From positions 738 through 64,737 of the forward strand of contig CAZJGC010000003.1 of NCBI GenBank assembly GCA_964545795.1: a DNA stretch of 64,000 bases. The letters are read 5' to 3'. The first letter of the stretch is position 1. Each line of letters starts with the position of its first letter. Source of the stretch: an uncultured archaeon (lineage in GTDB: Archaea; Aenigmatarchaeota; Aenigmatarchaeia; Aenigmatarchaeales; DAIDAN01). The position numbers and the translations under genes are program-made. The notes beneath the pieces are model-generated. The model made no database searches. It was not told where the DNA came from and saw only the letters and a list, made by a program, of their open reading frames with translations. Of this stretch, positions 3,361 through 32,128 are shown one piece after another.

Positions 3361-4065
3361 CTATGGAGTAGTTATTAATTTATTTATTTTTTTCAGCAGA
3401 CCACTGCCATATTGCGCTGCTTTTTTCGGTTTTTCCACAATCTCTTCAGGAATAACCATTCTTGCAACTTCCCTGAGAATATATTTTCTTATTCCATTGT
3501 TTATTTTCAGATTTAAAGGCAAAGAAAAGGCAAATTCAATTATTTCTTTATTAAGAAACGGCATAATTAACTTTTTTCTAAAATATTTTGCTATCTTAAC
3601 TTCAAAACTGTTTTTAACAAGCCTGTCATAATCTTTTTTCATCTCTTCTTCCTTATTTTCAATTCTCAAGTACTTTGCATAGCCGCCAAAAAGTTCATCT
3701 GCGCCAGCCCCCAAAACAATTGCTTCTTCCTCGCAACTCCCTGCCACAAAATATACCGGCAACAAATAAGAAAGCACAAAATTGTCATTAACCCCGACTA
3801 TGTTTGAAAGAGTATCTATGTGTTCTTTTATAGAACCCTCAACTTCTATCTCCCTAAGATTGAGCCTTAGTAATTTAGCAGAATGTTCTGCAGAAGCAAA
3901 ATCATGGCACCCCGGAACTCCTGCTGTATAAAGATTTACACTTGCTTTCTTTGATGCAAAAAATGCAACAACAGAGCTGTCAATGCCTCCTGAAAAAGCC
4001 ACAGCAACTTTATCAGGAAATTCCTGTTGTTTCAACAATTCAAGCAACCTTAGTTTATAGTCCAT
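3361..4065 (-). CDS. asparagine synthase-like PP-loop ATP pyrophosphatase (AsnB C-terminal domain family)
   Basis: PP-loop SGGIDSS motif and ELFGGY motif. Confidence 0.6.
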   Translation of the reverse strand: MDYKLRLLELLKQQEFPDKVAVAFSGGIDSSVVAFFASKKASVNLYTAGVPGCHDFASAEHSAKLLRLNLREIEVEGSIKEHIDTLSNIVGVNDNFVLSYLLPVYFVAGSCEEEAIVLGAGADELFGGYAKYLRIENKEEEMKKDYDRLVKNSFEVKIAKYFRKKLIMPFLNKEIIEFAFSLPLNLKINNGIRKYILREVARMVIPEEIVEKPKKAAQYGSGLLKKINKLITTP

Positions 4066-4113
4066 TATAACACCTTTATATTTTTATTCATATTTCACAA
4101 CATATTCACATGA

Positions 4114-4136
4114 ACCCCTTTGTTTCCTATGGAACT
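4114..4136 (-). promoter_or_regulatory. origin recognition box (ORB-A) with G-string
   Basis: Minus-strand read GTTCCATAGGAAACAAAGGGGT. It matches the archaeal ORB consensus (TTCCA-nn-GGAAAC-GAA-GGGGT) at nearly every position. Confidence 0.55.
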
Positions 4137-4174
4137 TCACGTATAAGTATTATTGATTATACGTTAATCACGTT

Positions 4175-4197
4175 ACCCCTTCATTTCCTATGGAAAA
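4175..4197 (-). promoter_or_regulatory. origin recognition box (ORB-B) with G-string, direct repeat of ORB-A
   Basis: Minus-strand read TTTTCCATAGGAAATGAAGGGGT. Overlaps the last codons of the PAP2 ORF. Confidence 0.55.
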
Positions 4198-4654
4198 TTG
4201 CACGTGAATATTTTGTGAACATTTTTATAACAACATCGCCTATAAAATAACCTAACACAGAACCTCCAACAACATCATACCATGTATGAAACCCTGTATA
4301 AACCCTGCCAAATGCCGTAATTAACCCTGCTATTAAACCAACAGCAAAAACAACCTTGTTCACGCGCATTATTCTTGTTTCACAGAATGCAAGTGAAGCA
4401 TGTGAACTTGGAAATGAAGGAGATTTTCCTAAACCATAAGGCCTTGGAATATTGAAAACCATTTTCAAAGCTTCCGAAACACCAAGAGCAACAAAAAATG
4501 CCAAAACAGATATCTTAGACTTCTGCTTGTCGCCTGTGAAATAAAAATATAACGGTATTATAAAAACCAACAGGAAGGGCAGGAAGGCGGATGCATAATA
4601 AACAGGTTCGCACAAAATCTGACCTGAGCATAAAAATTCATTCATAAAAACCAC
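4181..4654 (-). CDS. PAP2-family (type 2 phosphatidic acid phosphatase-like) membrane phosphatase
   Basis: KxxxxxxRP-like, PSSHA and YTGFHxxxDV motifs; multiple TM segments. Confidence 0.7.
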   Translation of the reverse strand: MVFMNEFLCSGQILCEPVYYASAFLPFLLVFIIPLYFYFTGDKQKSKISVLAFFVALGVSEALKMVFNIPRPYGLGKSPSFPSSHASLAFCETRIMRVNKVVFAVGLIAGLITAFGRVYTGFHTWYDVVGGSVLGYFIGDVVIKMFTKYSRAIFHRK

Positions 4655-4670
4655 ATTTTATAACACTGTT

Positions 4671-7304
4671 TTATATTTTAACAACTGTTCCAACATATCC
4701 GTCCTTCTCAAAATTCAGTTGCCCTCCGCATTCGGGGCACTTGCCAACAAGAGGAATTCTTCTGAAAGACCATTTGCATTTAATGCACGAAACAGCATCA
4801 AAACCCTCCAATATAGTCTCCTGAGCAGGTTTTGATGAAAAAACTTCAAAAAGACTCTTCTGTCTTGAACCTTCAAGAAGTTCAGCCTTATCCACGCCGC
4901 ATGCTTTAAAAATTCTCTCTATAGGAGGCAATATCTGGTTCTCTATATAATATTTTGAATCAATTTCAAGCCCCTTCTCTTTAACATATTCAGGGTCCTC
5001 TGCCCTTTTTGACAAGAGTTGGTTTCCCTTAATTATAACATAAGAAATTCTCTCTCCAACTGTTATGTTTCTTGTCGCATCTCTTGCATTTATCTTCTTT
5101 GCAAGCTCAACATGCGGTTGCACGCCGTCATAACTGTTCAGCGATTTGGTTATTCCTTTAACAATAGAAAGCTTTTCTAATGGTATTTTGCCTTCAGAAA
5201 GGCTTTTTATAACCTCTCTGACGTATTTAGACGCTTTTATTATATCTCCTTCCTTAAGAATTATATTTAATACGTTCATCATTGTTTCCCCTGTAAGTGA
5301 ACACCAATCCCTTCTAACAGTTTCTATTCCCTTCATTTCTATTTTATTTTCACCTTCTTCAAATTTCCAGCCCGCATATCGCTTCTTTGTAATAATAAGG
5401 AATGTTTTGTATGTTTTTTCAAATTTAAGGTTTAAAACTCCGGGCAATCTCTCTGAAACAAACTCAGAAATTTCTCTTCCTAACTTCTCTGCCTCCTCAA
5501 TATCAGATGTATTTGTTTCCACAAAAATAGAATCAGTATCGCCATAAACAACTCTTACAGGAAAATTCTCTTCAACCATTTTTTGCGTTTTCAGAATATT
5601 CTCCCTGCCATACGCCGTAACCGAGTTGGCAACATCCATAACATAAAGCCTTGCCCTTAAATAGCCTGTATAACCATATAAACTGTTAGCCATATCCTTT
5701 AAAGCCAACTGTTTTGCATTTAGCAATCTTTTTTCATCTCCTTCTGAAGATTTCATCCTTTTCTTAACAGCCGCGCGCGCTTCCATTAACTCCTTAAGAA
5801 CAGCTGGCAAAACCCCTTCCCTTACTTCAGGTTTCACAAATTTTACTCCCTGTGGGGTTGTGAAATGTTCAACATCATATTTATTATTAATAAGCAGAGT
5901 AGATGGGCATATATTGAATGTGCGTATTATGGACGGATATAGGCTTGTGAAATCAAGAACAACCACGCATTTATCTTTATACAACCCTGTAATGGGTTCA
6001 AGAACAATTGCGCCTTTAAGTCCTGCCTCCTCTCTTTCCTCTTTATATTTCATCAACTCGGCTGCTTCAGGTTTGCACGGCATTAGCATATTTCTCTTTC
6101 TAAATTCATGCAAAAGCCTGCACTCATGCCTCTGCGACTGTCCTCCTAAACTGTCCTGCAAAAGCAGACCTGATATTTTAGAAAGCTCAAAAAACTTGTC
6201 AATAAGGTTTTTTTCAATAACAAGAGCCAAAGCAAGCTCGGAGTCAACGCGGCAATACTCAACAAATTTGTTTAAATCCGCTGTATCCCCATTCCATAAT
6301 TTTTTCATTTCCTTTGGTCCTCCTACTTCAATTTTTTTCTTTCCAAGCATAGCCTCCGCTATTGTCCCCAAATCATATCTTTTAAATTTAACCCATGGAT
6401 CTCTTTTTATTATCTCATAAGGGTCAACAATAATGCGTCCTGATACAGAACACATATAACTGTTTTGCAGTTTTCTGCAGACAGAAGGCTTGCTTGACCT
6501 GCCAAAAGAACTGGAAACCCCAAGAACTTCCATTCTCTTTACAATATAAGGCAAATCAAAGTTGTTAATGTTATAACCTACTATAATATCAGGGTCAAAA
6601 GACTCTATTATATCGCTAAACTTTTCCAGCATCTGTTTTTCATCAGAACATATTATTGCATTGCCGTTCATACACTGCTTGCTAATAAGAACAGTTGTTT
6701 TTTTGCCGTTAAAATCAGGATAAAAAGCCATGCTTATCATGATTATCGGGTCTTTTTCAAAATCAGGCATTCTGTCATCGCTCTCAGATATGCATTCAAT
6801 ATCAAAACTAACATAACGCAGGGGCGCGTTCCCTTCTTTTTCTATTGTTCTTACTTTGTCTGCATCTATAGCCCTGCATTTTACGGTTTTCGTAAATGCT
6901 GGAGAACCTTCAATTTCAACCCATGACATTCCCCATAAATCATAATCAACCATAAACCTGTACTTAAAAAGAATGTCAGCCTCATAAACAGTTCCATAAG
7001 GTTTTAATCTCTCCTTTATTTCAGGTATTTTTCCCGGGTCTTTGCCCGTAATTTTCAAAACCTGTTTGGACTCATTATAACCAATTGGTATTATTTTTTT
7101 CTCAACATTTATAGAAACATTATAATCTTTTAACACTTCGCGTATTTTATCAGTGTCCTGAGAATCTATATAACAGTACGGAAGGAAATTCTTAAAGAAA
7201 GCGCATACTGTTTCTCCTTGTTCTGTTTTTCCAAAAAGCCTTACCAAAGGCTTTCCATTAAGCATAACATAATCACAATCAAGAATCTGCATTGCAACTC
7301 TCAT
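4671..7304 (-). CDS. polB: family-B DNA polymerase (PolB) with C-terminal zinc ribbon
   Basis: Exo motif FDIE, YGDTDS polymerase motif, K-x3-NS-x-YG motif, and C-terminal Cys4 ribbon (CIKCKW...CPECGG). At 877 aa there is no room for an intein. Confidence 0.95.
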   Translation of the reverse strand: MRVAMQILDCDYVMLNGKPLVRLFGKTEQGETVCAFFKNFLPYCYIDSQDTDKIREVLKDYNVSINVEKKIIPIGYNESKQVLKITGKDPGKIPEIKERLKPYGTVYEADILFKYRFMVDYDLWGMSWVEIEGSPAFTKTVKCRAIDADKVRTIEKEGNAPLRYVSFDIECISESDDRMPDFEKDPIIMISMAFYPDFNGKKTTVLISKQCMNGNAIICSDEKQMLEKFSDIIESFDPDIIVGYNINNFDLPYIVKRMEVLGVSSSFGRSSKPSVCRKLQNSYMCSVSGRIIVDPYEIIKRDPWVKFKRYDLGTIAEAMLGKKKIEVGGPKEMKKLWNGDTADLNKFVEYCRVDSELALALVIEKNLIDKFFELSKISGLLLQDSLGGQSQRHECRLLHEFRKRNMLMPCKPEAAELMKYKEEREEAGLKGAIVLEPITGLYKDKCVVVLDFTSLYPSIIRTFNICPSTLLINNKYDVEHFTTPQGVKFVKPEVREGVLPAVLKELMEARAAVKKRMKSSEGDEKRLLNAKQLALKDMANSLYGYTGYLRARLYVMDVANSVTAYGRENILKTQKMVEENFPVRVVYGDTDSIFVETNTSDIEEAEKLGREISEFVSERLPGVLNLKFEKTYKTFLIITKKRYAGWKFEEGENKIEMKGIETVRRDWCSLTGETMMNVLNIILKEGDIIKASKYVREVIKSLSEGKIPLEKLSIVKGITKSLNSYDGVQPHVELAKKINARDATRNITVGERISYVIIKGNQLLSKRAEDPEYVKEKGLEIDSKYYIENQILPPIERIFKACGVDKAELLEGSRQKSLFEVFSSKPAQETILEGFDAVSCIKCKWSFRRIPLVGKCPECGGQLNFEKDGYVGTVVKI

Positions 7305-7327
7305 GCTACATCCTTTGTTTTTGAAAC

Positions 7328-8203
7328 TTAAATTATTTTTTTATTTATTTCAACCCTGCCTGTATGCAACTCTATCTTTGCTGTTTGTTTCTCATTAATG
7401 CCAATAATTTTCACTCCATTATAATCTTTAATACCAACACCAGAGAAGCACAAAAAATAATCAGGAACTTCATCAAGTATGTTTTCTTCATAAATTCTTC
7501 CGGGATAGAAGCATCTTTTGCTAAGCACGGTTACAGGGTCTTTTGTATTAAAAACAAGAATCAATATATTATTAATTTTAACATAAACAGGATTTGAAGA
7601 GGCGAACAAAGAGTCTTTCTCTATTCTTGTCTCATTATCAAAAAATATTTTATAATCTCCGCAGTTTCCATTGAAACAAACAGTGCATTTCTTTCCTGAA
7701 ATTTTCGGAGTGTTTTTTATATTTGGATATTCTACAAACTCGGCATGCAGCACTTTATCTTTTACAATGCCGGAAACAAGAACAATTTCATCATTTATCA
7801 GTTTAATGCCATCTTTCAATCTTACCTTTATTTCGCCTGTTGGGTCTTCAATTTCAGCTTCATTGTTCTTAACATTTTTAACAATGCCTATAACAGATGC
7901 ATCACCAAAAACATTTGATATAGAAACAGTGTTTTTCTTTTTCACAAAATATTCGCTCATTTTCTGATAATATCTATTGTAAACTGCAACCAATTCATGA
8001 ACAGTATATTTCTTTTGCTCATGTTTCTTTTCAACCACTTCAAAAACATTTTCAAAAAAATCCTCTCCTATAACCAATGGTTTTTCTTTTTTTATTCGCT
8101 CAATAACTGCTTTAATCTCATGCTCGTTTAACCTGTTTATATGTTCGGCTGCTTTTGGTTCAACAAGAACTCCCATATCCATTATTTCTTTTATCACATT
8201 CAT
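7328..8203 (-). CDS. PolD small-subunit (DP1)/B-subunit-like protein: N-terminal DP1-type helical domain plus OB fold; phosphoesterase motifs not detectable
   Basis: N-terminus VIKEIMDMGVLVEPKAAEHI...PLVIGEDFF is like the DP1 N-terminal domain. OB-fold segment ASVIGIVKNVKNNEAEIEDPTGEIKVRLKD...IVLVSGIV matches the RPA/DP1 pattern xEDxTGxIxVxL. Synteny oriC-cdc6-DP1 as in PolD-bearing euryarchaea. No GDxHxG, GDxxDRG or GNHE motifs in the 130-aa C-terminus. Confidence 0.4.
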   Translation of the reverse strand: MNVIKEIMDMGVLVEPKAAEHINRLNEHEIKAVIERIKKEKPLVIGEDFFENVFEVVEKKHEQKKYTVHELVAVYNRYYQKMSEYFVKKKNTVSISNVFGDASVIGIVKNVKNNEAEIEDPTGEIKVRLKDGIKLINDEIVLVSGIVKDKVLHAEFVEYPNIKNTPKISGKKCTVCFNGNCGDYKIFFDNETRIEKDSLFASSNPVYVKINNILILVFNTKDPVTVLSKRCFYPGRIYEENILDEVPDYFLCFSGVGIKDYNGVKIIGINEKQTAKIELHTGRVEINKKII

Positions 8204-8213
8204 ACAAAACTCC

Positions 8214-9401
8214 TTAGTACAAAACCTCGCAAAGAACTTTCTTCATTTTCTCTTTGACAGTGTCGTCAACCATAAGATTTATTATTTTTGTGCGCCCATA
8301 TCTTCCTCTTGAAACATTTTTTGTGCTTATTATTCCAAACATATCAAGTTCAGATATAAGGTCTGAAACTCTTCTTTGAGTCAAAGGTTTTAACCCATAC
8401 TTCACGCAGTTTTTCTGATACTCTGAAAGAACATCTCCTGTAAGAACTTCTTTATTGTTTTCCAGCAAATCCAATATGGTCTGCATAACAATTTGGCTTT
8501 GTTTTGGCTGCGTCTTTACAATTTCAACAAATTTGTCAACATTTATTTTCTCTTCTGCTGAATCAACATGTTTTATTGTTACTTTCCTGCTTCCAGAACG
8601 CTCGGCAATCTCTCCTGCAACGCGGAGCAGATCCAAAGCCCGCCTTGCATCCCCATGCTCCTGTGCAGCAAGCGCAGCGCACTTCTCTATAACACCTTCT
8701 TCTATAACTCCTTCCGAAAAAGCAATTTCAGCCCTCTGCCTCAATATATCCTTTATCTGCGAAGCATTGTATGGAGGAAAAATAAGTTCTTCCTCAGAAA
8801 GAGATGATTTAATTCTTGTATCAAGAGTATTTACAAAACTAAGGTTGTTTGTTATTCCTATCAAACATATTTTTGCATTTTTCAATTCCTGATTTATTCT
8901 TGTCAGATTATAAATAATTTCATCTCCTGTCTTCTGCACAAGAGCATCTATTTCATCAATTATTAAAATCAAAATCTGTTTTTCAGAATCTATAACATCA
9001 AGAAATATTTTATATATCCTGTCAGTAGGAAGTCCTGTAAAAGGAACTTCTTTTCCAAGTTCTTTTAGTATTGTTGCCAATACCCTGTATTCTGTGTCTG
9101 CCACTTTTTTAAGTTTGCAGTTTATATAAACAGATTTTACTTTAAATTTCCTACTAGTTTCAATAAGTTTTTTTGTAACATAACATGAAATCAATGATTT
9201 CCCTGTTCCTGTTCTACCATAAATAAAAACATTGCTTGGTTTTGAACCAACAAGGGCAGGTGCCAAAATTTTGCCAAGTTCCTCTATCTGTTTTTCCCTA
9301 TGCAATATTTTACCAGGAACAAAACAAACAGAAAGAGCATCCCTGTCATTAAATAAACATTGAGATTGTATAAAATCATTAAATATTTTTTCCAAACTCA
9401 T
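8214..9401 (-). CDS. cdc6: Orc1/Cdc6 replication initiator
   Basis: AAA+ Walker A (GRTGTGKS) and Walker B (LILIIDEIDAL) with C-terminal winged helix; lies next to an AT-rich ORB-bearing region. Confidence 0.95.
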   Translation of the reverse strand: MSLEKIFNDFIQSQCLFNDRDALSVCFVPGKILHREKQIEELGKILAPALVGSKPSNVFIYGRTGTGKSLISCYVTKKLIETSRKFKVKSVYINCKLKKVADTEYRVLATILKELGKEVPFTGLPTDRIYKIFLDVIDSEKQILILIIDEIDALVQKTGDEIIYNLTRINQELKNAKICLIGITNNLSFVNTLDTRIKSSLSEEELIFPPYNASQIKDILRQRAEIAFSEGVIEEGVIEKCAALAAQEHGDARRALDLLRVAGEIAERSGSRKVTIKHVDSAEEKINVDKFVEIVKTQPKQSQIVMQTILDLLENNKEVLTGDVLSEYQKNCVKYGLKPLTQRRVSDLISELDMFGIISTKNVSRGRYGRTKIINLMVDDTVKEKMKKVLCEVLY

Positions 9402-9438
9402 TTTATTACAATGGAAATAAAGGTATTTATATTTTTAT

Positions 9439-9464
9439 AACCTTTTTTTCCTATGGAAATTCAC
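9439..9464 (-). promoter_or_regulatory. ORB element 1 of oriC (mini-ORB dyad, weak G-string)
   Basis: AACCTTTTTTTCCTATGGAAATTCAC; same dyad core as ORB-A and ORB-B. Confidence 0.5.
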
Positions 9465-9623
9465 TAAAATACAGTGACACACCCTTTCTTTTCCTTTAGA
9501 AACATTTTTAGAAATTAAATAAGTAATAAAAATTATTATATTAACTTTTCAGTAATAATTTTCATATAAATATAACATTGTTATATACTATATTTAATTT
9601 AAAAATAAATTATAAATAACAAA

Positions 9624-9649
9624 TTTCTATAAGAAATGATAGGGGGTCT
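9624..9649 (+). promoter_or_regulatory. ORB element 2 of oriC (degenerate dyad plus GGGGGT G-string), inverted relative to ORB-1
   Basis: TTTCTATAAGAAATGATAGGGGGTCT aligns 16/21 with the ORB-B reverse complement. Confidence 0.45.
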
Positions 9650-9667
9650 AAAATAATAATTATAAAT

Positions 9668-10384
9668 TTATGAGAATTTATTGTGCAAAATTTCTATAAT
9701 TTTTTCTTCAGGTGTCAATGTTATAGCTACAGGTATTCTTTCAACAAAAGCTATTCTTTTCGCGATTTCATCAACGGATTTTATATTTACAAATATTACA
9801 ATTCCTGGTTTAAGATTGGATACTTTTATGGCTATCATTGGGCTTCTTCCGCGTTTAAGATTAGTGAATATAAGAGCCCTTTCTGTTGTCAATCCATACA
9901 ATTTTACAAGGTCTGTTGGAGGCAAATTTATTATTGCTTTAAGGCTGTCTATTATTGTATATCCATAAATATTATTATTTGACAATTCTTCATGAACAAC
10001 AACATCAGCTCCAATAATTTTGCAGAAATTTTTTATTGAAACAGGTTTGTTAAATTCTTTTAAACTTATAACAGCATCAGATAAAATTGTTTCTGTTGGA
10101 AGAGAAGAGAAATATTTTATAATATTTCCGCCATTTCTTTCATCAATATTTATAAGGGCTTCAACTATGCGTTTTATAATTTTTATTCCCGGACTTTTTC
10201 TTCTGCCTGATTCATAATCACTTATAACAGACGGCATTATATGCATTTCATCTGCAAGAGTTTTTTGCGATAATTTAAAAATATTTCTCCATTTTTGTAT
10301 TGTTTTTCCATGGTCATTGCTTAATACAATTTCTCCTGCTATTCTTTTTAGTAAATTTTCTTTTGCTAATGAATTTTTATCCAT
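9668..10384 (-). CDS. XRE-type HTH transcription regulator with a conserved archaeal C-terminal domain (COG1395-like)
   Basis: HTH segment LSQKTLADEMHIMPSVISDYESGRR near the N-terminus. Confidence 0.55.
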   Translation of the reverse strand: MDKNSLAKENLLKRIAGEIVLSNDHGKTIQKWRNIFKLSQKTLADEMHIMPSVISDYESGRRKSPGIKIIKRIVEALINIDERNGGNIIKYFSSLPTETILSDAVISLKEFNKPVSIKNFCKIIGADVVVHEELSNNNIYGYTIIDSLKAIINLPPTDLVKLYGLTTERALIFTNLKRGRSPMIAIKVSNLKPGIVIFVNIKSVDEIAKRIAFVERIPVAITLTPEEKIIEILHNKFS

Positions 10385-10466
10385 ATAAGTATATTGACGA
10401 TAGTCATTTAAATAATTAACGAATGTTATATTAAAACTTTATATAATTAGCAAACAAAATAACTAT

Positions 10467-11018
10467 ATGAGCATAGCAACTGATAAAATATTGGTAAAGG
10501 ATGCAATGAGAAAAAAGGTTTTTACAACAACTGTTGATGAGAGTGTTTTAGATGTTGCCATAAAATTAAAAAATAACGGTGTAGGAAGTCTTGTTGTTAT
10601 GGATGGTGAAAAACCTATAGGAATAATAACAAGAGAAGATATTTCAGATAAGGTTGCTGCTCAGGATAAAAAGGCGTCGGAAGTTAAAGTAAAAGATGTT
10701 ATGAATCAGCCATTAATATCATGTTCTTCTAATGATGATATAAATAGCGTTTCAAAAATTATGGTAAAGTATGGTTATAGAAGAATACCTGTTATAGATA
10801 ATGGAAAACTTGTTGGTATCATATCAGCAAAGGAAATATTGAAAATTTCCCCTGTTCTTGTAGATGTTTTTAAAGAGTATCTTGAAAGAAAATATTCTCC
10901 TGATAAAGAAGAAAGCATGGAAGGCGGGACATGTGAGATGTGCGACAATTATTCTGAAAGTTTGACAAATGTTAATGATAAATGGATATGCGAAGCATGC
11001 AAGGAAGAGAGCGAGTGA
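10467..11018 (+). CDS. CBS-pair domain protein with C-terminal Cys4 zinc ribbon
   Basis: Two CBS repeats; C-terminal CEMCDN...CEACKEE. Confidence 0.7.
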   Translation: MSIATDKILVKDAMRKKVFTTTVDESVLDVAIKLKNNGVGSLVVMDGEKPIGIITREDISDKVAAQDKKASEVKVKDVMNQPLISCSSNDDINSVSKIMVKYGYRRIPVIDNGKLVGIISAKEILKISPVLVDVFKEYLERKYSPDKEESMEGGTCEMCDNYSESLTNVNDKWICEACKEESE

Positions 11019-11020
11019 TA

Positions 11021-11248
11021 ATGCTTGTAAATGCCAAAGTGAAGACAGGCGCAAAAAAATTTTCTGTGAAATTTGAAAATAATATATTATTTATATCATT
11101 AACAGAGCAGCCTGAAAATAATAAAGCAAATATAGAACTTATAAAACAACTGACAAAAGTTTTTGGACCATGTAGAATTGTGAAAGGGTTGCGCTCAAAA
11201 AACAAGGTTATTGAGTTTGAAGCAGATAAAATTAAATTTTCAGATTAG
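11021..11248 (+). CDS. YggU/DUF167-family small protein
   Basis: MLVNAKVKTGAKK... pattern of the UPF0235 family. The likely real start is the ATG at 11021 rather than the track start at 10982, which overlaps the CBS gene. Confidence 0.55.
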   Translation: MLVNAKVKTGAKKFSVKFENNILFISLTEQPENNKANIELIKQLTKVFGPCRIVKGLRSKNKVIEFEADKIKFSD

Positions 11249-11426
11249 TTTCTGTTTGCTCTGCATATGTTTAAATATTTTAAAATTCTATAACTATTAT
11301 TGAAACCGGAAAAGCTGGTAAAAATTAAATTAATCAATTAATATCATTTATAATCATTAGTAAATCAATAACAAACAGGAAATTAGACATAACAGCTCTT
11401 TCTCGGTTTAAAAAACGAAAAGGTGA

Positions 11427-12632
11427 TTGTTTATGGCTAAATTGGCTCAAACAACTTCAAAATATACTATTTACGCGAAATTTGAAGCTGACGGCACTGT
11501 TGAAAAACCTGATGTAATAGGCGCTGTTTTCGGGCAGACAGAAGGCTTGCTCGGACAGGAACTTGATTTAAGGGAACTTCAGAGAACAGGGAGAATAGGA
11601 AGAATAGATGTTGAATTGACTTCAAAGAACGGCAAAGTGTCAGGAAAAATAATTATTCCTTCTTCGCTTGATGGAAGTGAGACAGCGCTGATAGGCGCAT
11701 GCATGGAAACAATAGAACGTGTTGGGCCATGCAATGCAACTGTTGTGGTTGAAAAAATAGAAGATGTGAGGGCGGTAAAGAGAAGATATGTTATAGACAG
11801 GGCGAAAGAACTTCTTGAAAGCCTTTATGATATTGGAATGGAAGCAGAGGAAATATCGGAGCAAATAAAAGAGGCTGTGAGGTCAAGCGAAATAACAACA
11901 TATCAGGGCTTGCCTGCAGGACCTAAAATAACAAGTTCTGATAATATTATAGTTGTTGAAGGACGCGCAGATGTTGTTAATTTGTTAAGATGCGGCATTA
12001 AAAATGTCATAGCAATAGAAGGCACAAGCATACCTGAAGCCATAATAAATCTTTCAAAGGAAAAAACAATGACAGTTTTTTTGGACGGAGACAGGGGCGG
12101 AGATTTAATTTTAAAGGAAATGCTTGCTGTGTGCGAGGTTGATTTCATAGCTCGCGCAACAAGGGGCAAGGAAGTTGAAGACCTGACAAAGAAAGAAATA
12201 TATAAATGTTTGAGAGCTCAGATGCCTGTTGACCAATACAAAGAGGAATTTAATTTGGAGAAAGGAAAGAGAGGAAATTCAAAACAGGCAAATACAAGGC
12301 AGGCAGATGCAAAACAGATAAACAAAAATGCGAAGATTGGAAAGGAGAAAATGGCAAACATAAAGAAATTGCTGGAGGAATTGACGGGAACAAGAGCTGC
12401 CTGTTTCTTGGATGAAGACATGAACATTACAAAGAGAATGCCTGTTAAGGATATGTTCAATGCCATGAAAGAGGTGCACCCGTTTGCATTGGTTTTTGAC
12501 GGAGAGATAGACCAGAAACTTGTTACATTTTCATCTCAAAGAAATGTCAGATATATTGTCGGCATGAAGACAAGGGGAAGAATCGCAGTTCCAGATAATA
12601 TGCAGGTGTTCACTATTGACACCCTGCAATAA
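11427..12632 (+). CDS. dnaG: archaeal DnaG-like primase (TOPRIM; exosome-associated)
   Basis: N-terminus KYTIYAKFEADGTVEKPDVIGAVFGQTEGLLG is diagnostic of archaeal DnaG. TOPRIM IVVEGRADVVNL plus DGDRGG. Confidence 0.85.
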   Translation: MFMAKLAQTTSKYTIYAKFEADGTVEKPDVIGAVFGQTEGLLGQELDLRELQRTGRIGRIDVELTSKNGKVSGKIIIPSSLDGSETALIGACMETIERVGPCNATVVVEKIEDVRAVKRRYVIDRAKELLESLYDIGMEAEEISEQIKEAVRSSEITTYQGLPAGPKITSSDNIIVVEGRADVVNLLRCGIKNVIAIEGTSIPEAIINLSKEKTMTVFLDGDRGGDLILKEMLAVCEVDFIARATRGKEVEDLTKKEIYKCLRAQMPVDQYKEEFNLEKGKRGNSKQANTRQADAKQINKNAKIGKEKMANIKKLLEELTGTRAACFLDEDMNITKRMPVKDMFNAMKEVHPFALVFDGEIDQKLVTFSSQRNVRYIVGMKTRGRIAVPDNMQVFTIDTLQ

Positions 12633-12662
12633 TTTTTTATTTATATTTTTTAATTTTATAAC

Positions 12663-13673
12663 ATGAATGAAGTGGAAAATAGAATAAGAAATCTAAATAT
12701 ATTGAAGGGCAAGGTTGATATAGTACTTCTTGCTAACATGGATAACCCGTGCAAGGATGCAAATTTTATTTATTTTGCAGCAACCGATTCTGATTATTCT
12801 TTTTTTCTATATGATTTTTCAAGAGCCGAGATAGTTACAAACAGGCTGGAATTTCCAAAAATAAAGAAAGAGTCAAAAATAAGAGATGTTAAGGTTCCTG
12901 AAAAAATGCTTGAATATTTGAGTCATAAACTAAGCAATAAAAGAGTTGGTGTTGATTCAAACCTTTCATTCTTTCTTGCAAGGAAACTGAAAATAAAACC
13001 TGTTGACATAACAAAGGAACTTGAAGGCATAAGGTCTGTTAAGTCAGAATTAGAAGTAAAAAACATAAAAAAAGCATGCAAAATAACAAGCAATATAATG
13101 GAAGCTTTGAATGATTTTATAAAACCTGGATTGTCTGAGAACAAAATAAGAATGCATATAAGAAAAATGATAATTGAAGCAGGCGCATCAGAAGCAATGT
13201 TTGATGTAATTGTAAGTTCTGGGCATAACACATCAGTTCCGCATTCGCTTAATGCAGACAGAAAAATAAAGAGCAATGATATTGTTATGGTTGATTTTGG
13301 ATGCAGATATAAAAACTATCATTCGGACATGACAAGAATGTTTTTTCTTGGAAGCAATAAACACAGAATTCGTTATGAAATGCTGGAGTCATTGTTAGAT
13401 GAAGTAAAAGATTTTATTCATGTCGGAATGAGGGCAGGAGATGTTGATGAGTTTATAAGAAGCAGGCTTGGAGAGAGATTTATACATGCAGCAGGGCATG
13501 GTTTGGGTCTGCTGCCGCATGAAACGCCTGTTATTTCCGAGAAATCAGATGATATATTAAAAGAGAACATGGTGTTTGCAATTGAACCCGGCATTTATTT
13601 TAAGAACTATGGTTTGCGTATAGAGGACACAGTTTTATTAACAAGAAAAGGTATAAAAACTTTGACGAAATAA
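12663..13673 (+). CDS. M24-family metallopeptidase (Xaa-Pro aminopeptidase/prolidase-like)
   Basis: Pita-bread fold metal ligands: DFG...D...HGLGL...E...E(IEPG). Confidence 0.75.
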   Translation: MNEVENRIRNLNILKGKVDIVLLANMDNPCKDANFIYFAATDSDYSFFLYDFSRAEIVTNRLEFPKIKKESKIRDVKVPEKMLEYLSHKLSNKRVGVDSNLSFFLARKLKIKPVDITKELEGIRSVKSELEVKNIKKACKITSNIMEALNDFIKPGLSENKIRMHIRKMIIEAGASEAMFDVIVSSGHNTSVPHSLNADRKIKSNDIVMVDFGCRYKNYHSDMTRMFFLGSNKHRIRYEMLESLLDEVKDFIHVGMRAGDVDEFIRSRLGERFIHAAGHGLGLLPHETPVISEKSDDILKENMVFAIEPGIYFKNYGLRIEDTVLLTRKGIKTLTK

Positions 13674-13674
13674 T

Positions 13675-14724
13675 TTGATGGGTGTTGCTATGAAGAAAAT
13701 ATTAAAGGCTCTTGTTGAGGCGCAATCTGTAACAGGAAGAGAAAACAATGTAAGAAACATTATGAAAAAAGAGTTTGAGAAATCATGCGATTCGGTTGAA
13801 GTAAATAAAATGGGAAATATTATAGCAAAAAAAGGCAAAGGCAAAATAAAACTGATGTTTGTTTCTCATATGGATGAAGTTGGCCTGATGGTGAAATATG
13901 TAACAGAAAACGGGTTTCTTAGATTTGATCCTCTTGGCGGAATAGACCAGCGTTCTCTTCTTGCCCAAAAAGTTCGCGTGTATGCTGACAATGGCAAAGT
14001 GTTTGTTGGAGTTATAGGAAGCAAGCCAATTCATATTCAGGAAAGAGAAGAGCAGGAGAAGGTTATAAAAATGAAGAGGCTTTTTATTGATGTTGGCGCA
14101 GGAAGCAGAAAAGAAGTTGAGAAAATGGGAATTAAGCCCGGTGCATTTGTTGGTTTGTACAGGGAGTTTTCAGAACTTGCAGACAATAAAGTTACTGGAA
14201 ACGGATTGGATAACAGGGCAGGTTGCGCAGTGTTAATAGAATTAATGAAAAGAGTGAAGCCGAAAAACTGCACAATATATGCTGTTGGTTCTGTGCAGGA
14301 AGAAAAGGGATTGATAGGAGCAAGAGGCACAATATTTCAGATAAATCCTGATGTAGTAATTGGCGTTGATACAACTATAGCAGGAGATACTCCTGAGATT
14401 GAGGAGGCGGACGCGCCTGTTAAAATAGGAGAAGGGCCTGTTATAGTTTTAATGGACGGATATTCTGTTATACATCCTTCAGTAAAGAAATGGATTATGG
14501 AAACTGCAGAAAGAAATAAAATAAAGTATCAATTTGAATTGTCTCCAAATGCTGGAATGGATTCTTCTGTGGCGGCAATAATAAGGGAAGGCATTCCGGC
14601 AGCAGGAATAGCAGTGCCTACAAGGTATCTGCATACAGGAGTTGAAGTTTTAAGCATGAAAGATTTGGAAAGCGTTGCAGGTTTGCTGGAGCATATAGTT
14701 AAAACAGTTGACAAATATTTTTAG
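13675..14724 (+). CDS. M42-family (TET/FrvX-like) aminopeptidase
   Basis: SHMDEVG, DNRAGC and EEKGL(I)GA motifs. Confidence 0.8.
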   Translation: MMGVAMKKILKALVEAQSVTGRENNVRNIMKKEFEKSCDSVEVNKMGNIIAKKGKGKIKLMFVSHMDEVGLMVKYVTENGFLRFDPLGGIDQRSLLAQKVRVYADNGKVFVGVIGSKPIHIQEREEQEKVIKMKRLFIDVGAGSRKEVEKMGIKPGAFVGLYREFSELADNKVTGNGLDNRAGCAVLIELMKRVKPKNCTIYAVGSVQEEKGLIGARGTIFQINPDVVIGVDTTIAGDTPEIEEADAPVKIGEGPVIVLMDGYSVIHPSVKKWIMETAERNKIKYQFELSPNAGMDSSVAAIIREGIPAAGIAVPTRYLHTGVEVLSMKDLESVAGLLEHIVKTVDKYF

Positions 14725-22365: not shown

Positions 22366-22702
22366 TAGAATCAGCTATTATTTCAAGCCTGTTTTTATAG
22401 ATATTTACTTTTCCTTTTACTTTAATATAATCTCCTTTTTTAATGTTAAAATGATTTTTAAAGGCAACAACAAGTATTTCTGATGCATTGTCTGCTATAT
22501 TAATAAACATATTTCCTGATTTTTCATAGACAGAATTAACATAACCATACGTGATGATTTTGTCTCCTGACATGGATTTTTTTATGTCTGATATTTTTAC
22601 TGCTTTCACTTCCATTGTTTGTGTTATAAAAACTATTAATAATATTCCAATAACAGAGGCGAATATAGAGAGTTTAAGCAGTGTTTCATCTCTCATGTTC
22701 AC
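22352..22702 (-). CDS. membrane-anchored OB-fold (tRNA_anti-like) protein
   Basis: N-terminal TM, then OB-fold pattern (YVNSVYEKSGNMFINIADNASEILVVAF...GDYIKVKGKV). Confidence 0.5.
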   Translation of the reverse strand: MNMRDETLLKLSIFASVIGILLIVFITQTMEVKAVKISDIKKSMSGDKIITYGYVNSVYEKSGNMFINIADNASEILVVAFKNHFNIKKGDYIKVKGKVNIYKNRLEIIADSINRS

Positions 22703-22709
22703 ACCATGT

Positions 22710-23243
22710 TCACGTTAATTTCACGCTGTAAATTTTCTCATATACAGAACCATCTTTGGTAAGCGTTGATTTAAATAGTGAAATTTCTGACACAATTAAT
22801 ATTCCAAAATCCGTATTTTTGAATTTCTCCAGAATTTCTTTTATGTTGTGGTTTGCTGATTTAACTCTTGCTAGTGTTATGTGGGGTGCATGATTTTTCT
22901 CCTTTTCAAAACCTAATTCTTTAAGTTTGTTGTCAATTGCAACTGCTATATCATAAAATGTTTTGCTTTCAGCGCCTGCCCATACAACGCGTATGTAATT
23001 GTTGTTTGGAAAACAACCAATTCCTTTTATATTCATTTGAAATTTTTTGAATTTAGAGCATGTGTTTTTGATTATGTTTTTTATTTGTGTAATTTTGTTT
23101 TCATTGACATTGCCAAGGAATTTCAGTGTAATATGGAGGTTCTCCTGCGGCACAATCTTTATATCTCCTTCTAATTTGCGTTGTATATCTCTTAGTTTCA
23201 GTTTCAATGATTTATCCAAATCAATAGCAATAAAGCATCTCAT
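22710..23243 (-). CDS. thpR: RNA 2',3'-cyclic phosphodiesterase (2H family, ThpR/LigT)
   Basis: Two H-x-T-x motifs (HITLKF and HITLAR). Confidence 0.85.
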   Translation of the reverse strand: MRCFIAIDLDKSLKLKLRDIQRKLEGDIKIVPQENLHITLKFLGNVNENKITQIKNIIKNTCSKFKKFQMNIKGIGCFPNNNYIRVVWAGAESKTFYDIAVAIDNKLKELGFEKEKNHAPHITLARVKSANHNIKEILEKFKNTDFGILIVSEISLFKSTLTKDGSVYEKIYSVKLT

Positions 23244-25697: not shown

Positions 25698-25745
25698 GTG
25701 AACATGTGAACAACACGTGAACATAACGTGAAATTTGACGTGAAG
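25698..25745 (+). repeat. iteron-like array: 5 direct GTGAA(C) repeats at 8-12-bp spacing
   Basis: catGTGAACatGTGAACaacacGTGAACataacGTGAAAtttgacGTGAAG, immediately after the nrdD stop codon. Confidence 0.85.
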
Positions 25746-25791
25746 TAAAACTTTAAAAGTTTGTATTTTCATAATTTAGAAAGGTGATAGA

Positions 25792-26061
25792 ATGGGTAAG
25801 ATAACAATATTTACTTCAAAGACATGCACAAAATGCCCCCAAGCCAAAGCAATTGTTGAGGATGTTGCTAAAGAGATCGGGTGCGAAGTTGAATATGTTG
25901 ATATTGAAAAAGAGCTTTTTAGGGCTCTTGAAAATCAGATAGCCACTGTACCTTCTGTTATGGTTAATGGAATTATTGTATCAAGAGGGGAAATACCTAA
26001 AAAAGAGGATATATTATCAGTTCTTAATGGAAGTGAATGTTCACGTGAACAAAAAGAATAA
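25792..26061 (+). CDS. glutaredoxin-like/NrdH-like redoxin
   Basis: Thioredoxin fold with a CTKC active-site motif. The C-terminal codons (SREQKE) are encoded by the first GTGAA repeats of the next array. Confidence 0.55.
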   Translation: MGKITIFTSKTCTKCPQAKAIVEDVAKEIGCEVEYVDIEKELFRALENQIATVPSVMVNGIIVSRGEIPKKEDILSVLNGSECSREQKE

Positions 26062-26144
26062 TTGTGAACAAAATGTGAACAACACGTGAACTTAATATAA
26101 ACTTCACGTGAACTTGTGAATATTCACGTGAAGGTGTCGTGAAA
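26033..26144 (+). repeat. iteron-like array: 9-10 direct GTGAA(C/T/G/A) repeats phased at 11 (or 22) bp, including the 12-bp palindrome GTTCACGTGAAC
   Basis: Repeat starts at 26033, 26045, 26064, 26075, 26086, 26108, 26117, 26128 and 26139. The array sits between the NrdH-like gene and nrdG. Confidence 0.85.
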
Positions 26145-26863
26145 TGGAACATAAAAAATTAAAGATTGGCGGAATACTAGATATTTCTACAATAGATTAT
26201 CCAGGCAAACTCACATCTGTTATTTTTCTTCATGGTTGTAATTTCAGATGTCCATTTTGTTTTAACCCTGAACTTGTGCTAGGAAAACCTTCACGTGAAC
26301 TTCACGTGAAAGAAATAATTGAGAAAATAAGTAATTTCAGGGATTTTATAGATGCGGTAGTTATTACTGGCGGAGAGCCTACGTTGCAACCTCTTGAATT
26401 TTTATGTAAAGAACTTAGAAAAATTGGATTATTTGTAAAGATAGATACGAATGGTTCAAATCCTGATGTTATAGAAAATTTAATAAGAAAGGGGTTGATA
26501 GATTTTGTCGCTCTTGATATAAAAGCGCCTTTTAGCAAATATTCACGCGTGATTGGCAATGTGCGTGAACAAGACGTGAACAATATTAAAAAAACATTTG
26601 AGATGCTTTTGAATTTTGATATAGATTATGAATGTAGAACTCCTGTTGTTCCAAACGTGAATATGCAGCACATGCAGGAACTTGCAGAAGATGTGAAGCC
26701 ATCAAAAGTTTTTGTTCTTGAACAATTTAAATGTGAAAAAGGCACTTTGTCAGGAATAAAAGGCAGCATATCTCGTGAAGAACTTGTGAAAATAGCAAAA
26801 ATGTTCTCAAACAAAACAGTAAAGATAAGAACAGCAGAATCAGGCGAGGAAGTGGTAGCGTGA
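26144..26863 (+). CDS. nrdG: anaerobic RNR activating protein (radical SAM)
   Basis: CNFRCPFC radical-SAM cluster near the N-terminus. It contains three in-frame 11-bp-phased GTGAA pairs (26295/26306, 26565/26576, 26775/26786). Confidence 0.75.
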   Translation: MEHKKLKIGGILDISTIDYPGKLTSVIFLHGCNFRCPFCFNPELVLGKPSRELHVKEIIEKISNFRDFIDAVVITGGEPTLQPLEFLCKELRKIGLFVKIDTNGSNPDVIENLIRKGLIDFVALDIKAPFSKYSRVIGNVREQDVNNIKKTFEMLLNFDIDYECRTPVVPNVNMQHMQELAEDVKPSKVFVLEQFKCEKGTLSGIKGSISREELVKIAKMFSNKTVKIRTAESGEEVVA

Positions 26864-26931
26864 ATATTCACGTGAACTTCATGTTTTGTTCATATAGAAA
26901 TATTTAAATATTATCATGTTCACGTGAACAT
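26860..26931 (+). repeat. GTGAA repeats plus the perfect 16-bp palindrome ATGTTCACGTGAACAT (26916-26931) in the promoter/start region of the ExeA-like ATPase gene
   Basis: GTGAAT at 26860, GTGAAC at 26872, and the palindrome at 26916-26931. The track's GTG start at 26924 lies inside the palindrome. Confidence 0.8.
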
Positions 26932-26932
26932 T

Positions 26933-28036
26933 ATGATAGAAGACAAATTTGATGACTATGAAGAAAGCGTGAAACAATGGTTTCTAAAATTAAACTGGAA
27001 TGAGAACCCATTTACATTTAAAATATCTCCTGATATGTTTACTGGTTATGAAGTTCAGATAAAAGCTATTTTAAAGCATATATCAGAACAGCATAAAATA
27101 GCCATTCTTACAGGACCTACTGGCGCAGGAAAGACAACTATGCTAAAATGGACAGAAGCAAAACTGAAAGATGATAAAATAAAAATGATGTATTTGTCAA
27201 AACCCCCTTCTGACCCAAGCGAATTTGTGCGGATATTCACTAACTTTTTTGGAAGAAGCATTATTGAGAGAATTTTTATGAAAGAGGTAACAATTTTTAA
27301 TTTAAGCGATTATATAAACAGAAAACTTGGCAGCAGACATCTTGTTCTTTTGGTTGATGAAGCGCATGAAACAAACAAAAATGTTCTTGAATGGTTGCGA
27401 ATTCTTGTTGACCAAATAGAGAATGTTTCAATGGTTCTTGCAGGGTTGCCTTTGCTTGAGGATAAAATAAAAAACAAACTTGAGACACTTGACCAGAGAA
27501 TTACCACAAGAATAAAACTCACATCTCTTAATATGGCAGAAACAAGAGAACTTATTAGGAGAAGAATAGAATCTGTTGGCGGCGAAGATATAAAACCGTT
27601 TACTGAAGAGTCTGTTTCGCAGATTTTCAGAAAGACAGGAGGGTTTCCAAGAGAGGTAATAAAGTTATGCGACAAACTTGTGAATGATGCAATAGAGAAG
27701 AATGTTTATGAAATAACTGCTGATAACATTTCTGAATATAAGGAAATAAGCGAAGAACCTGTTTCCAAGTCGGTTCAACCAAAATTCTCTTTGAAGGAAC
27801 TTCCATACAAACAGAGGAAAGTATTGGAAATATTGTCTGATAGCGATTGGCTTACTCCGTCAGAGGTTGCAGAAAGACTTGGCGGTTCTTATAAGTCTGA
27901 GTATCATGCAATCCGTTCCATGAACAATATTCTTAAGAGGCTTATGAAGTGCGGATTTGTAGAAAGAGAAACAAAAGGCAAAACATTTATCTATAAACTT
28001 ACACCAAAAATTAAAACACTTTTGGTGGAGGCGTGA
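26933..28036 (+). CDS. ExeA/GspA-like AAA+ ATPase (AAA_22-type) with C-terminal winged-helix domain
   Basis: NPFTFKISPDMF N-terminal ExeA-type motif, Walker A GPTGAGKTT, Walker B LLVDEAHE, and a C-terminal wH (LTPSEVAERLGG...GFVERETKGKTFIYKLT). The likely start is the ATG at 26933 rather than the track GTG at 26924. Confidence 0.55.
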   Translation: MIEDKFDDYEESVKQWFLKLNWNENPFTFKISPDMFTGYEVQIKAILKHISEQHKIAILTGPTGAGKTTMLKWTEAKLKDDKIKMMYLSKPPSDPSEFVRIFTNFFGRSIIERIFMKEVTIFNLSDYINRKLGSRHLVLLVDEAHETNKNVLEWLRILVDQIENVSMVLAGLPLLEDKIKNKLETLDQRITTRIKLTSLNMAETRELIRRRIESVGGEDIKPFTEESVSQIFRKTGGFPREVIKLCDKLVNDAIEKNVYEITADNISEYKEISEEPVSKSVQPKFSLKELPYKQRKVLEILSDSDWLTPSEVAERLGGSYKSEYHAIRSMNNILKRLMKCGFVERETKGKTFIYKLTPKIKTLLVEA

Positions 28037-31267: not shown

Positions 31268-31333
31268 GCATGAATATTAAATGGCTGATTTAAATGTTTT
31301 TGCATGCTCAAACAACAATAGTGCAACAGCAAT

Positions 31334-31935: not shown

Positions 31936-32128
31936 TGCGTGGGTTGTTTTATAAAATATATATTATTATTTATATTTTAAGAAATATTTGTAATATAATA
32001 TTTATAATAAAATATATCTTGCAGGATATTTAATAAAAAACATATGACATAAAAAATATATTTTAAAACATAAATAAGAAAACACTAATTTTAAATAGGG
32101 GTAAAGATAATTATGAATAGGTGTTAGT

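Follow-up and report, generated by a model that had tools for sequence, protein, structure and literature searches.

The ORB pair downstream of polB

The window analysed here is a 64,000-nucleotide stretch of DNA from an uncultured archaeon (contig CAZJGC010000003.1), and the element under study is a pair of origin recognition boxes (ORBs) placed at the end of a gene cluster that includes the initiator gene cdc6 and the DNA polymerase gene polB. All genes within 1-10.4 kb are on the minus strand, following the layout oriC, cdc6, small open reading frame (ORF), polB, PAP2 gene, and ORB pair, the latter being located 5.3 kb from oriC. Together with the GTGAA-type sites around it, the pair forms a module at 4090-4222, whose elements are listed below (L numbers designate related contigs, L022-L024 belonging to a sister lineage).

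4094 to 4109, minus strand: GTGAA-N6-GTGAA pair (TTCAC at 4094-4098 and 4105-4109), 11-bp phased, an exact pattern match beside ORB-A
4112 to 4137, minus strand: ORB-A, with dyad TTCCATAGGAA and G-string GGGG, an exact 20-mer match kept in L022-L024
4136 to 4174, no strand assigned: inter-ORB spacer, with GTGAA at 4136-4140 abutting ORB-A and AACGTGATT at 4166-4174 following ORB-B
4173 to 4198, minus strand: ORB-B, oriented as ORB-A, 91% identical to L022
4201 to 4219, plus strand: CACGTGAA-N6-GTGAA pair (GTGAA at 4204-4208 and 4215-4219), the mirror of 4094-4109, 11-bp phased, within the last codons of PAP2

On the plus strand, ORB-A (4114-4136) reads ACCCCTTTGTTTCCTATGGAACT and ORB-B (4175-4197) reads ACCCCTTCATTTCCTATGGAAAA; on the strand of the genes, they read TTCCATAGGAAACAAAGGGG and TTCCATAGGAAATGAAGGGG. 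In this latter direction, both display the core of the element, a TTCCnnnGGAA dyad with a G-string at a fixed distance, five bases on. A repeat search of the window identifies them as direct repeats with a start-to-start distance of 61 bp, and both share one polarity, the dyad side facing polB. ORB-B extends into the 3' end of the PAP2 ORF (4181-4654), over its final codons and stop codon (4181-4183). A previous sequence-only reading of this DNA had reported the two boxes, the overlap with PAP2, and the inverted 11-bp-phased flanks (TTCAC at 4094 and 4105, GTGAA at 4204 and 4215), all of which are present.

A position weight matrix (PWM) was built from 64 distinct cdc6-adjacent ORBs of unrelated metagenomic lineages. 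Over the 64 kb, it ranks ORB-A first (30.2 bits) and ORB-B second (28.1 bits), whereas 13.3 bits is the highest score in 30 shuffles and the ORBs of oriC score 12.6, 8.3, 5.9, and 2.8 bits. The pair is thus closer to the consensus than the boxes adjacent to cdc6, as had been claimed. With up to three mismatches, the 20-mer CCCCTTNNTTTCCTATGGAA is found four times in the window (4115, 4176, 9439, and 9482), only at this locus and at oriC, against 0.05 expected. The ORB core TTCCTATGGAA occurs again, exactly, at 9448-9458 in oriC. The GTGAA-N6-GTGAA pattern, with up to one mismatch, is present 19 times in the window versus 4.7 expected, a count exceeded by none of 100 shuffles. Its matches are concentrated at the ORB-pair locus and at the nrd locus (22.7-27 kb), in line with the common repeat unit noticed earlier. 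Neither the ORB pair nor its GTGAA features are due to chance. Another repeat flanking the module, TGTTATAA, was dismissed since the window includes 22 copies of it.

The GTGAA-type sites are organized around and between the boxes. The pair at 4094-4109, which is GTGAT-N6-GTGAA in L022, stands just upstream (gap of ~7 nt) of an AT-rich TATA-like stretch of the next gene, whose start codon is at 4063-4065; this geometry matches that of the array preceding a glutaredoxin-like gene (25738-25760). The opposite pair, at 4201-4219, reads ATTCACAAAGTATTCACGTG on the gene strand of L022. Both pairs form a 19-nt inverted repeat (4094-4112 and 4201-4219) with arms that are 89% complementary, and an inner 11-nt inverted repeat is found within the spacer (4136-4146 and 4157-4167). 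ACGTGAT follows ORB-B at 4166-4172, and L022 keeps both AACGTGATTAACGTATA after ORB-B and the GTGAAG-TTCC of the spacer. At oriC, one ORB is also abutted by GTGAA (TTCAC at 9459-9463). The GTGAA units had been considered as a bracket; they do flank the ORBs, but they are also interleaved with them and are part of a wider conserved motif system.

The genes around the module and the origin adjacent to cdc6 are as follows:

3361 to 4065, minus strand: protein with an Asn-synthase C-terminal domain (Asn-synthase-like), the next gene past the module
4181 to 9401, minus strand: cluster between the two sets of ORBs, from Pfam and NCBIfam assignments
4181 to 4654, minus strand: PAP2
4671 to 7304, minus strand: polB
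7328 to 8203, minus strand: 291-aa ORF between cdc6 and polB, no Pfam match
8214 to 9401, minus strand: cdc6, NCBIfam ORC1-type model, E 9e-149
9402 to 9667, no strand assigned: canonical cdc6-adjacent origin (oriC), upstream of cdc6
9403 to 9428: mini-ORB of oriC
9439 to 9458 and 9482 to 9501: ORBs of oriC
~9502 to 9620 (roughly 120 bp): duplex unwinding element (DUE) of oriC, AT 0.93, at the 0.15th percentile of duplex stability in the window, with the palindrome ATAACATTGTTAT at 9572-9584
9622 to 9647: inverted ORB of oriC, of opposite polarity

In oriC1 of Sulfolobus, ORBs bind Orc1-1 monomers with a defined polarity, and losing either inverted ORB abolishes firing (PMC12141716). The module lacks a DUE. 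Indeed, the least stable 60-nt window within 4066-4225 has an AT content of 0.75 and stands at the 10.5th percentile, and the inter-ORB DNA (AT 0.68) stands at the 23rd percentile of duplex stability. In the window as in ten relatives, the vicinity is devoid of ORBs of opposite polarity, and the locus has no ORB beyond the two in the window or in the relatives. As both the DUE and the inverted ORB are missing, the module is not a canonical origin, and a canonical second origin was rejected on these grounds and given the complete origin at 9402-9667; the unlikeness to a bidirectional origin, already suspected, is borne out. The odd feature of the locus is that it constitutes half an origin, the other half (DUE and opposing ORB) being absent. 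The GC skew changes sign near 10 kb, at a resolution too coarse to separate 4.1 from 9.5 kb.

The same origin layout is found upstream of cdc6 in L033 and L133, and L033 carries a metallophosphoesterase gene just upstream of oriC. A palindrome, ATAACAyTGTTAT, is located inside the DUE of the cdc6-adjacent origin in the window (9572-9584), L033 (7459), L133 (717), and L012 (7603), as well as at positions 21941 and 31669 of the window; it may be a lineage-specific counterpart of the UBP-bound ucm motif of Sulfolobus. A non-coding, very AT-rich region of 860 nt extends from 31268 to 32128, between histone, RPA, and RadA genes (minus strand) on one side and a winged-helix gene (plus strand) on the other. 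It holds at least seven copies of TAACTCTCAC(T/A)TT and two of ATGGAAAAATAA, which are mini-ORB-like, together with the ATAACATTGTTAT palindrome of the oriC DUE. A 60-nt stretch at 31956 (AT 0.97) is also among the least stable in the window. Should a second origin-like region exist in the window, 31268-32128 would be a better candidate than the ORB pair.

Conservation and linkage to the cdc6-polB cluster

The best relative of the window PolB shares 60% identity and most share 43-47%, the host being an Aenigmatarchaeota-like DPANN lineage. An exact-protein look-up of the neighbouring gene returned the identical contig only, and the nearest non-identical relative of the Asn-synthase-like protein (59% identity) is encoded on contigs L022-L024. 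These contigs keep the order PolB, PAP2, intergenic region, and Asn-synthase-like gene, with flanking proteins in L022 that are 59-65% identical to those of the window. In the intergenic DNA of L022-L024, the two ORBs and their 61-bp distance are preserved, as are the two pairs of phased pentamers and the AACGTGATTAACGTATA that follows ORB-B. The arrangement of ORBs and GTGAA sites is thus kept in relatives, a point that had been raised as a check and that also holds in a second clade, as described below.

At the DNA level, window and L022 are 79.7% identical over the module (4090-4222) and 77.4% over the intergenic part (4066-4180), versus 67-73% for the flanking coding sequences. The last 45 nt of PAP2, which house part of the module, are 86.7% identical, against 73% for the rest of the coding sequence. 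As a comparison, four control intergenic regions aligned between the window and the sister contig L146 are 38-52% identical, whereas coding sequences of this pair are 63-75% identical. The identity of 77-80% in the module versus 38-52% in the controls shows the module to be under purifying selection.

A context-blind scan of metagenomes was carried out for directly repeated full ORBs at a distance of 46-76 bp, and the loci recovered (at least 120) were classified by tblastn with the window proteins. At no fewer than 49 of them, cdc6 adjoins the pair, which corresponds to the usual type of origin in many archaea (consensus TTCCAGTGGAAATnAAGGGG). Among the metagenomic origins listed, direct ORB pairs ~60 bp apart are even the commonest arrangement beside cdc6. 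The sequence-only reading had regarded the direct-repeat arrangement as unusual, which does not hold for the repeats themselves, whereas the missing DUE and opposing ORB do set the locus apart.

Eighteen of the classified loci include polB, i.e., 16 among the matches listed and the sister-lineage contigs L022 and L023; L025 has polB and no ORB pair. The pair follows polB or polB-PAP2 on at least 16 further contigs (L029-L141), hence on at least 19 with L022-L024. Among the scan matches listed, it is always downstream of polB and in the same orientation, lying 83-119 nt after polB on eleven contigs and after PAP2 on five (L033, L135, L035, L046, and L072). On L033, L122, and L133, cdc6, the small ORF, polB, and the pair are all carried by a single contig.

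The architecture shared by these loci was read from an alignment of 17 sequences. CAyGTGAA stands ~20 nt upstream of the first ORB (TTCCAnnnGAAATGAAGGGG), which is directly followed by (T/C)GTGAAnTTCAC and by a spacer of ~25 nt that is not AT-rich; then come the second ORB (TTCCAnnGGAAATnAnGGGGT), TCACATGAAnTTCAT, and further copies of TTCAC. In place of these palindromes of the second clade, the window lineage carries AACGTGATT after ORB-B and TTCATGTGAA with phased GTGAA after ORB-A. In both clades, GTGAA-type sites flank both ORBs. The gene past the module varies, being NAC in most of the second clade and the Asn-synthase-like gene in the window, and that of L035, L067, and L070 is convergent. 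The module therefore belongs to the end of the cluster and not to one promoter, and the same variation weakens the candidate explanation of a promoter element specific to the Asn-synthase-like gene.

Among representative genomes of the GTDB, a PolB search returned 20 loci, the nearest at 60% identity. Thirteen of them (L001-L011, L014, and L017) have no pair after polB, which first looked like non-conservation. However, no cdc6 is found near polB in ten of these thirteen lineages, namely those with enough upstream sequence (L004, L005, and L007 offer only 1-1.5 kb), whereas every pair-bearing contig with enough upstream DNA displays cdc6, the ORF, and polB in a row. The loss of linkage between cdc6 and polB in such lineages accounts for the missing pair. 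When PolB sequences are placed in a rough neighbour-joining tree, lineages with the pair correspond to one clade plus the clade of the window. In these two DPANN clades, the module is a conserved part of the cdc6-polB cluster, and it tracks the cdc6 cluster rather than polB.

Some neighbouring features emerged from the same contigs. The ORF between cdc6 and polB is always present, in the window (7328-8203, minus strand) as in L033 (8787-9341), L122 (1254-1853), and L133 (2055-2648). The 291-aa product in the window weakly matches the N-terminal part of the small subunit DP1 of PolD (NCBIfam, E 1.9e-9), and this ORF could encode a B-subunit-like partner of PolB in archaea otherwise without PolD. 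In L012, the PolB match (10001-13924) is split in two segments ~1.1 kb apart (10001-11863 and 13022-13924), which suggests an intein or another insertion. In other archaeal lineages, whose ORBs are of the GGGGTGGGGG type, two boxes in the same orientation are found 102-141 nt past the stop codon of cdc6 (L047, L115, L117, L124, L129, and L079), without GTGAA motifs on any of these six contigs, and L079 displays ORB pairs on both sides of cdc6. ORBs downstream of an initiator gene may thus be widespread outside haloarchaea.

The GTGAA motif at the nrd locus and a candidate binding protein

The second concentration of GTGAA sites in the window is found among nrdD, nrdG, and their neighbours:

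22697 to 22724: three further GTGAA copies
25698 to 26931, no strand assigned: GTGAA(C) arrays and TTCACGTGAA palindromes, located both within and between the glutaredoxin-like, nrdG, and AAA+/winged-helix genes
26924 to 28036, plus strand: candidate GTGAA binder, an AAA_22 ATPase with a C-terminal winged helix (Pfam AAA_22, Penicillinase_R/TrmB winged helix)

Arrays with 11-bp phasing and TTCACGTGAA palindromes are nested at the junctions between nrdD and the glutaredoxin-like gene, between the latter and nrdG, and between nrdG and the next gene; the motif is also present at the junction of an OB-fold gene and a LigT-like gene. In both the window and the sister lineage L146, GTGAA arrays immediately precede several start codons of the locus. 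L146 has the motifs at the same junctions and inside nrdG. In the window, the in-frame GTGAA/TTCACGTGAA sites of nrdG (26144-26863) are located at 26288-26312 and 26565-26581, such as CCTTCACGTGAACTTCACGTGAAAG encoding PSRELHVK, and the sister lineage keeps them (L146, 5866-5881 and 6144), which would imply that a protein-binding motif is selected within the coding region of nrdG.

The AAA+/winged-helix protein is ~55% identical across Aenigmatarchaeota, and its gene is always near nrd genes, an adenylate-kinase-like gene, RadA, and RPA. A TTCACGTGAA palindrome stands just upstream of this gene in all five lineages examined (window, L146, L149, L150, and L151). In L151, from another Aenigmatarchaeota genome, the 580-nt intergenic region upstream of it (3427-4000) includes five TTCACGTGAA and many 11-bp-phased GTGAA/TTCAC half-sites, resembling an iteron field beside an initiator-like gene. 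As a motif upstream of its own gene is the pattern of an autoregulated DNA-binding protein, the AAA+/winged-helix protein is a candidate for binding GTGAA. NrdR was rejected for this role; the window has no NrdR, and in L151, the arrays precede the AAA+/winged-helix gene although NrdR adjoins nrdD, the NrdR-nrdD region of that contig being devoid of GTGAA motifs.

The AlphaFold2 (AF2) model of the AAA+/winged-helix protein (pLDDT 88.5) comprises an AAA+ base, a lid, and a C-terminal winged helix, i.e., an Orc1/Cdc6-like architecture. The top full-length Foldseek matches in the PDB are 1w5t (ORC2 of A. pernix), 2qby (Orc1-1/Orc1-3 of S. solfataricus), and 2v1u (ORC1 of A. pernix), with E values from 2e-12 to 1e-9. 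By sequence, one search of the PDB returned nothing and another only MuB (8xvb, E 4e-5), so that the Orc-like architecture is visible by fold search only. The protein is below the threshold of the Orc1/Cdc6 family (TIGR02928, 23.7 bits versus a cut-off of 181.3, E 1.9e-5), and no Cdc6_lid or Cdc6_C match was obtained with Pfam.

In bacterial parS, of consensus TGTTTCACGTGAAACA, the inner 10 bp are identical to the palindrome TTCACGTGAA, and both motifs are near an origin. The likeness is a resemblance only. Indeed, the full 16-bp parS is not found, the outer bases differ (flanks GTGAAC instead of GTGAAA), and the inner match is restricted to the nrd-locus copies, the ORB-pair locus including only imperfect versions (TTCATGTGAA and CACGTGAA). 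No ParB domain was detected among 37 window proteins scanned with Pfam (about half of the window), and no ORF includes a GERR box. An identity as a ParB/parS system was rejected, as the inner 10 bp match alone and ParB was not found among the scanned proteins.

Proposed role and competing explanations

The module is tentatively proposed to be a conserved auxiliary Orc1-binding control locus for the nearby origin, comparable with oriC2D of haloarchaea and not itself an origin. This proposal draws on the sequence anatomy, the conservation, the absent origin features, the synteny with cdc6-polB, and the association of motifs with genes. Each box would be occupied by an Orc1/Cdc6 monomer, in one common orientation (dyad side to polB), and from these two high-affinity sites the monomers would restrain or time the firing of oriC 5.3 kb away, either by holding initiator from oriC (titration) or by pairing with oriC-bound initiator (looping, handcuffing). 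A second protein, for which the AAA+/winged-helix protein is the best candidate, would bind the GTGAA half-sites that abut or bracket each ORB, and the same factor would tie the module to the nrd genes of deoxynucleoside triphosphate (dNTP) synthesis carrying the motif arrays. A second Orc1-binding regulatory locus was among the possibilities listed by the sequence-only reading, and the PWM ranks, the missing DUE and inverted ORB, and the conservation all support it. For the replication-fork trap that was also listed, no support was obtained.

The oriC2D region of Haloarcula hispanica, rich in ORBs, lies immediately past cdc6E, is inactive as an origin, and could not be deleted (Wu et al., NAR 2014, PMC3936714). 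It lowers the copy number of oriC2 plasmids in proportion to the number of ORBs and is essential for the negative control of oriC2, which its authors interpret as a likely titration of Cdc6E, ORBs downstream of ori-cdc6 being common in haloarchaea (PMC3936714). In both cases, an ORB cluster is on the far side of an origin-linked initiator gene, apart from the true origin and without origin features. The window pair is such a downstream cluster, with the same layout in L033, L122, and L133, albeit not directly adjacent to cdc6. The two loci differ in ORB density, with 11 ORBs in 722 bp for oriC2D versus two here, and in position, the pair coming after the four-gene cluster cdc6, ORF, polB, and PAP2 rather than directly after cdc6. 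The fixed ~60 bp spacing, the interleaved GTGAA motif, and the DPANN host are also particular to the present locus.

Second, non-firing sets of origin repeats exist downstream of the rep gene in the plasmids P1 (incC-repA-incA) and F (incC iterons), and in datA of E. coli, the accessory DNA-binding protein IHF binds between initiator boxes. The module shares with them the succession of origin repeats, initiator gene, and second non-firing repeat set, the likeness with datA being functional, and a GTGAA factor might stand between the ORBs as IHF does between initiator boxes. The initiator here is Orc1/Cdc6 instead of DnaA or Rep, and the sites are far fewer. The datA locus is also cited in PMC3936714. 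With oriC1 of Sulfolobus, the module has in common the recognition element, dyad plus G-string, but neither the AT-rich unwinding element nor the opposite-polarity ORB that oriC1 needs to fire (PMC12141716); its ~60 bp spacing matches the direct pairs beside cdc6 in many metagenomic origins. An ORB directly beside the site of a second protein is also encountered at oriC2 of S. solfataricus, where Orc1-1 and Orc1-3 bind side by side (2qby), and at the ucm/UBP sites of Sulfolobales (PMC12141716), whereas the GTGAA half-sites are arranged in palindromes or 11-bp-phased arrays, extend across the nrd operon, and have a binder that is only a candidate.

Several points weigh against this proposed role. 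L012 has cdc6 linked to polB and yet no clear pair. The pair-bearing lineages fall in just two clades, and the correlation with linkage therefore rests on few independent events. Two ORBs make a small sink compared with the 11 of oriC2D. The promoter-proximal GTGAA pair occupies the position expected of a transcription factor for the downstream gene, and some of the module may thus serve conventional gene regulation. As regards the second protein, the GTGAA motif is linked to it by association only, RuvB scores similarly in the fold search, and the AAA+/winged-helix fold also matches clamp-loader subunits. More generally, binding by Orc1, the protein assigned to GTGAA, and the sense in which oriC would be regulated are inferred, the organisms being uncultured.

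Among the other explanations, transcriptional control is somewhat unlikely, though plausible for part of the module, and it is compatible with a control locus for oriC rather than exclusive of it. Orc1/Cdc6 and the GTGAA factor would act as regulators or as a roadblock, setting the 3' boundary of cdc6-polB-PAP2, gating the downstream gene, and co-regulating it with the nrd genes. This would account for the GTGAA pair at 4094-4109 ending ~7 nt before a TATA-like stretch, with the geometry seen at the glutaredoxin-like gene, for the arrays right upstream of nrd-locus start codons in the window and L146, and for a module directly upstream of a co-directional gene in most relatives. However, the downstream gene is not conserved, the nearest one being convergent in L035, L067, and L070, the conserved partner is the cdc6-polB cluster, and a simple operator would not need full-consensus ORBs stronger than those of the origin.

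It is distinctly less probable that the module belongs to a bipartite origin as its second half, or helps to load the helicase, with ORB clusters flanking the initiator cluster and cooperating by looping. Equally, it could be an origin that fires weakly or conditionally, and the AAA+/winged-helix protein might then be required. In Bacillus subtilis and Helicobacter pylori, clusters of DnaA boxes flank dnaA and cooperate by looping, and the H. pylori origin has been described as bipartite. Whereas the two ORB sets bracket the cluster in the orientation of the cdc6-proximal ORBs, with a high quality of the boxes, the module has no DUE and no opposing ORB, and the inter-ORB spacer of the second clade is not AT-rich. 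The association of a second initiator-like protein with the neighbouring motif recalls Orc1-1/Orc1-3 at Sulfolobus oriC2 (2qby); still, oriC alone has a complete canonical layout in the window and relatives, and the haloarchaeal counterpart oriC2D had no origin activity (PMC3936714).

A site for segregation or chromosome organization, in which GTGAA/TTCACGTGAA would be centromere-like for a spreading or polymerizing protein and the ORBs merely co-located, is very unlikely. The conserved pair of full ORBs would be left unexplained, the motif is imperfect at the ORB-pair locus, the palindrome flanks are GTGAAC and not the GTGAAA of parS, and no ParB-like protein occurs in the annotated part of the window. 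Such a function would nonetheless agree with the identity of TTCACGTGAA to the inner 10 bp of parS, the clustering of the motif within ~17 kb of oriC, and the L151 array of 580 nt with five palindromes. It would also fit the candidate binder, whose AAA+ part matches MuB, a DNA-polymerizing ATPase (8xvb, E 4e-5), and whose winged helix has a weak match to AspA, from the partition system of pNOB8.

Finally, a structured RNA, a mobile-element remnant, or a chance similarity is scarcely credible: the 160-nt region folds better than shuffled sequences (z = -3.3) owing only to the 19-nt inverted repeat, and the terminal inverted repeats bear a superficial likeness to the ends of a miniature transposable element, but no Rfam family matches, the palindromes of relatives have 1-nt spacers that are impossible as hairpin loops, the N6 arm spacers changed without compensation between the window and L022 while the pentamers were kept, the same genomic position is occupied across deep lineages, and chance is excluded by the 20-mer count, the control-region identities, and the PWM ranks. 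A structured RNA was rejected on these grounds.

The control of replication initiation is poorly understood in archaea, and essentially nothing is known of it in DPANN; no literature on ORBs in DPANN was found among open-access papers. Even if the auxiliary control reading of the module is wrong, the locus is a warning against annotating every high-scoring ORB cluster as an origin. A broader version, unlikely but worth stating, is a two-initiator locus, with Orc1/Cdc6 on the ORBs and the Orc-like AAA+/winged-helix protein on GTGAA, in a circuit coupling origin licensing to dNTP supply or, via the parS-like palindromes, to origin-proximal chromosome organization; if true, such a circuit is so far undescribed in archaea. 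As only short DNA sites and two soluble proteins are involved, the hypothesis can be tested in vitro despite the uncultured hosts. The locus thus offers a compact, sequence-defined, and conserved candidate site for initiator control, of which the earlier example comes from one haloarchaeon only, and it points to a concrete second player, namely the GTGAA motif together with a conserved AAA+/winged-helix protein that is Orc-like and associated with the genes of ribonucleotide reductase.

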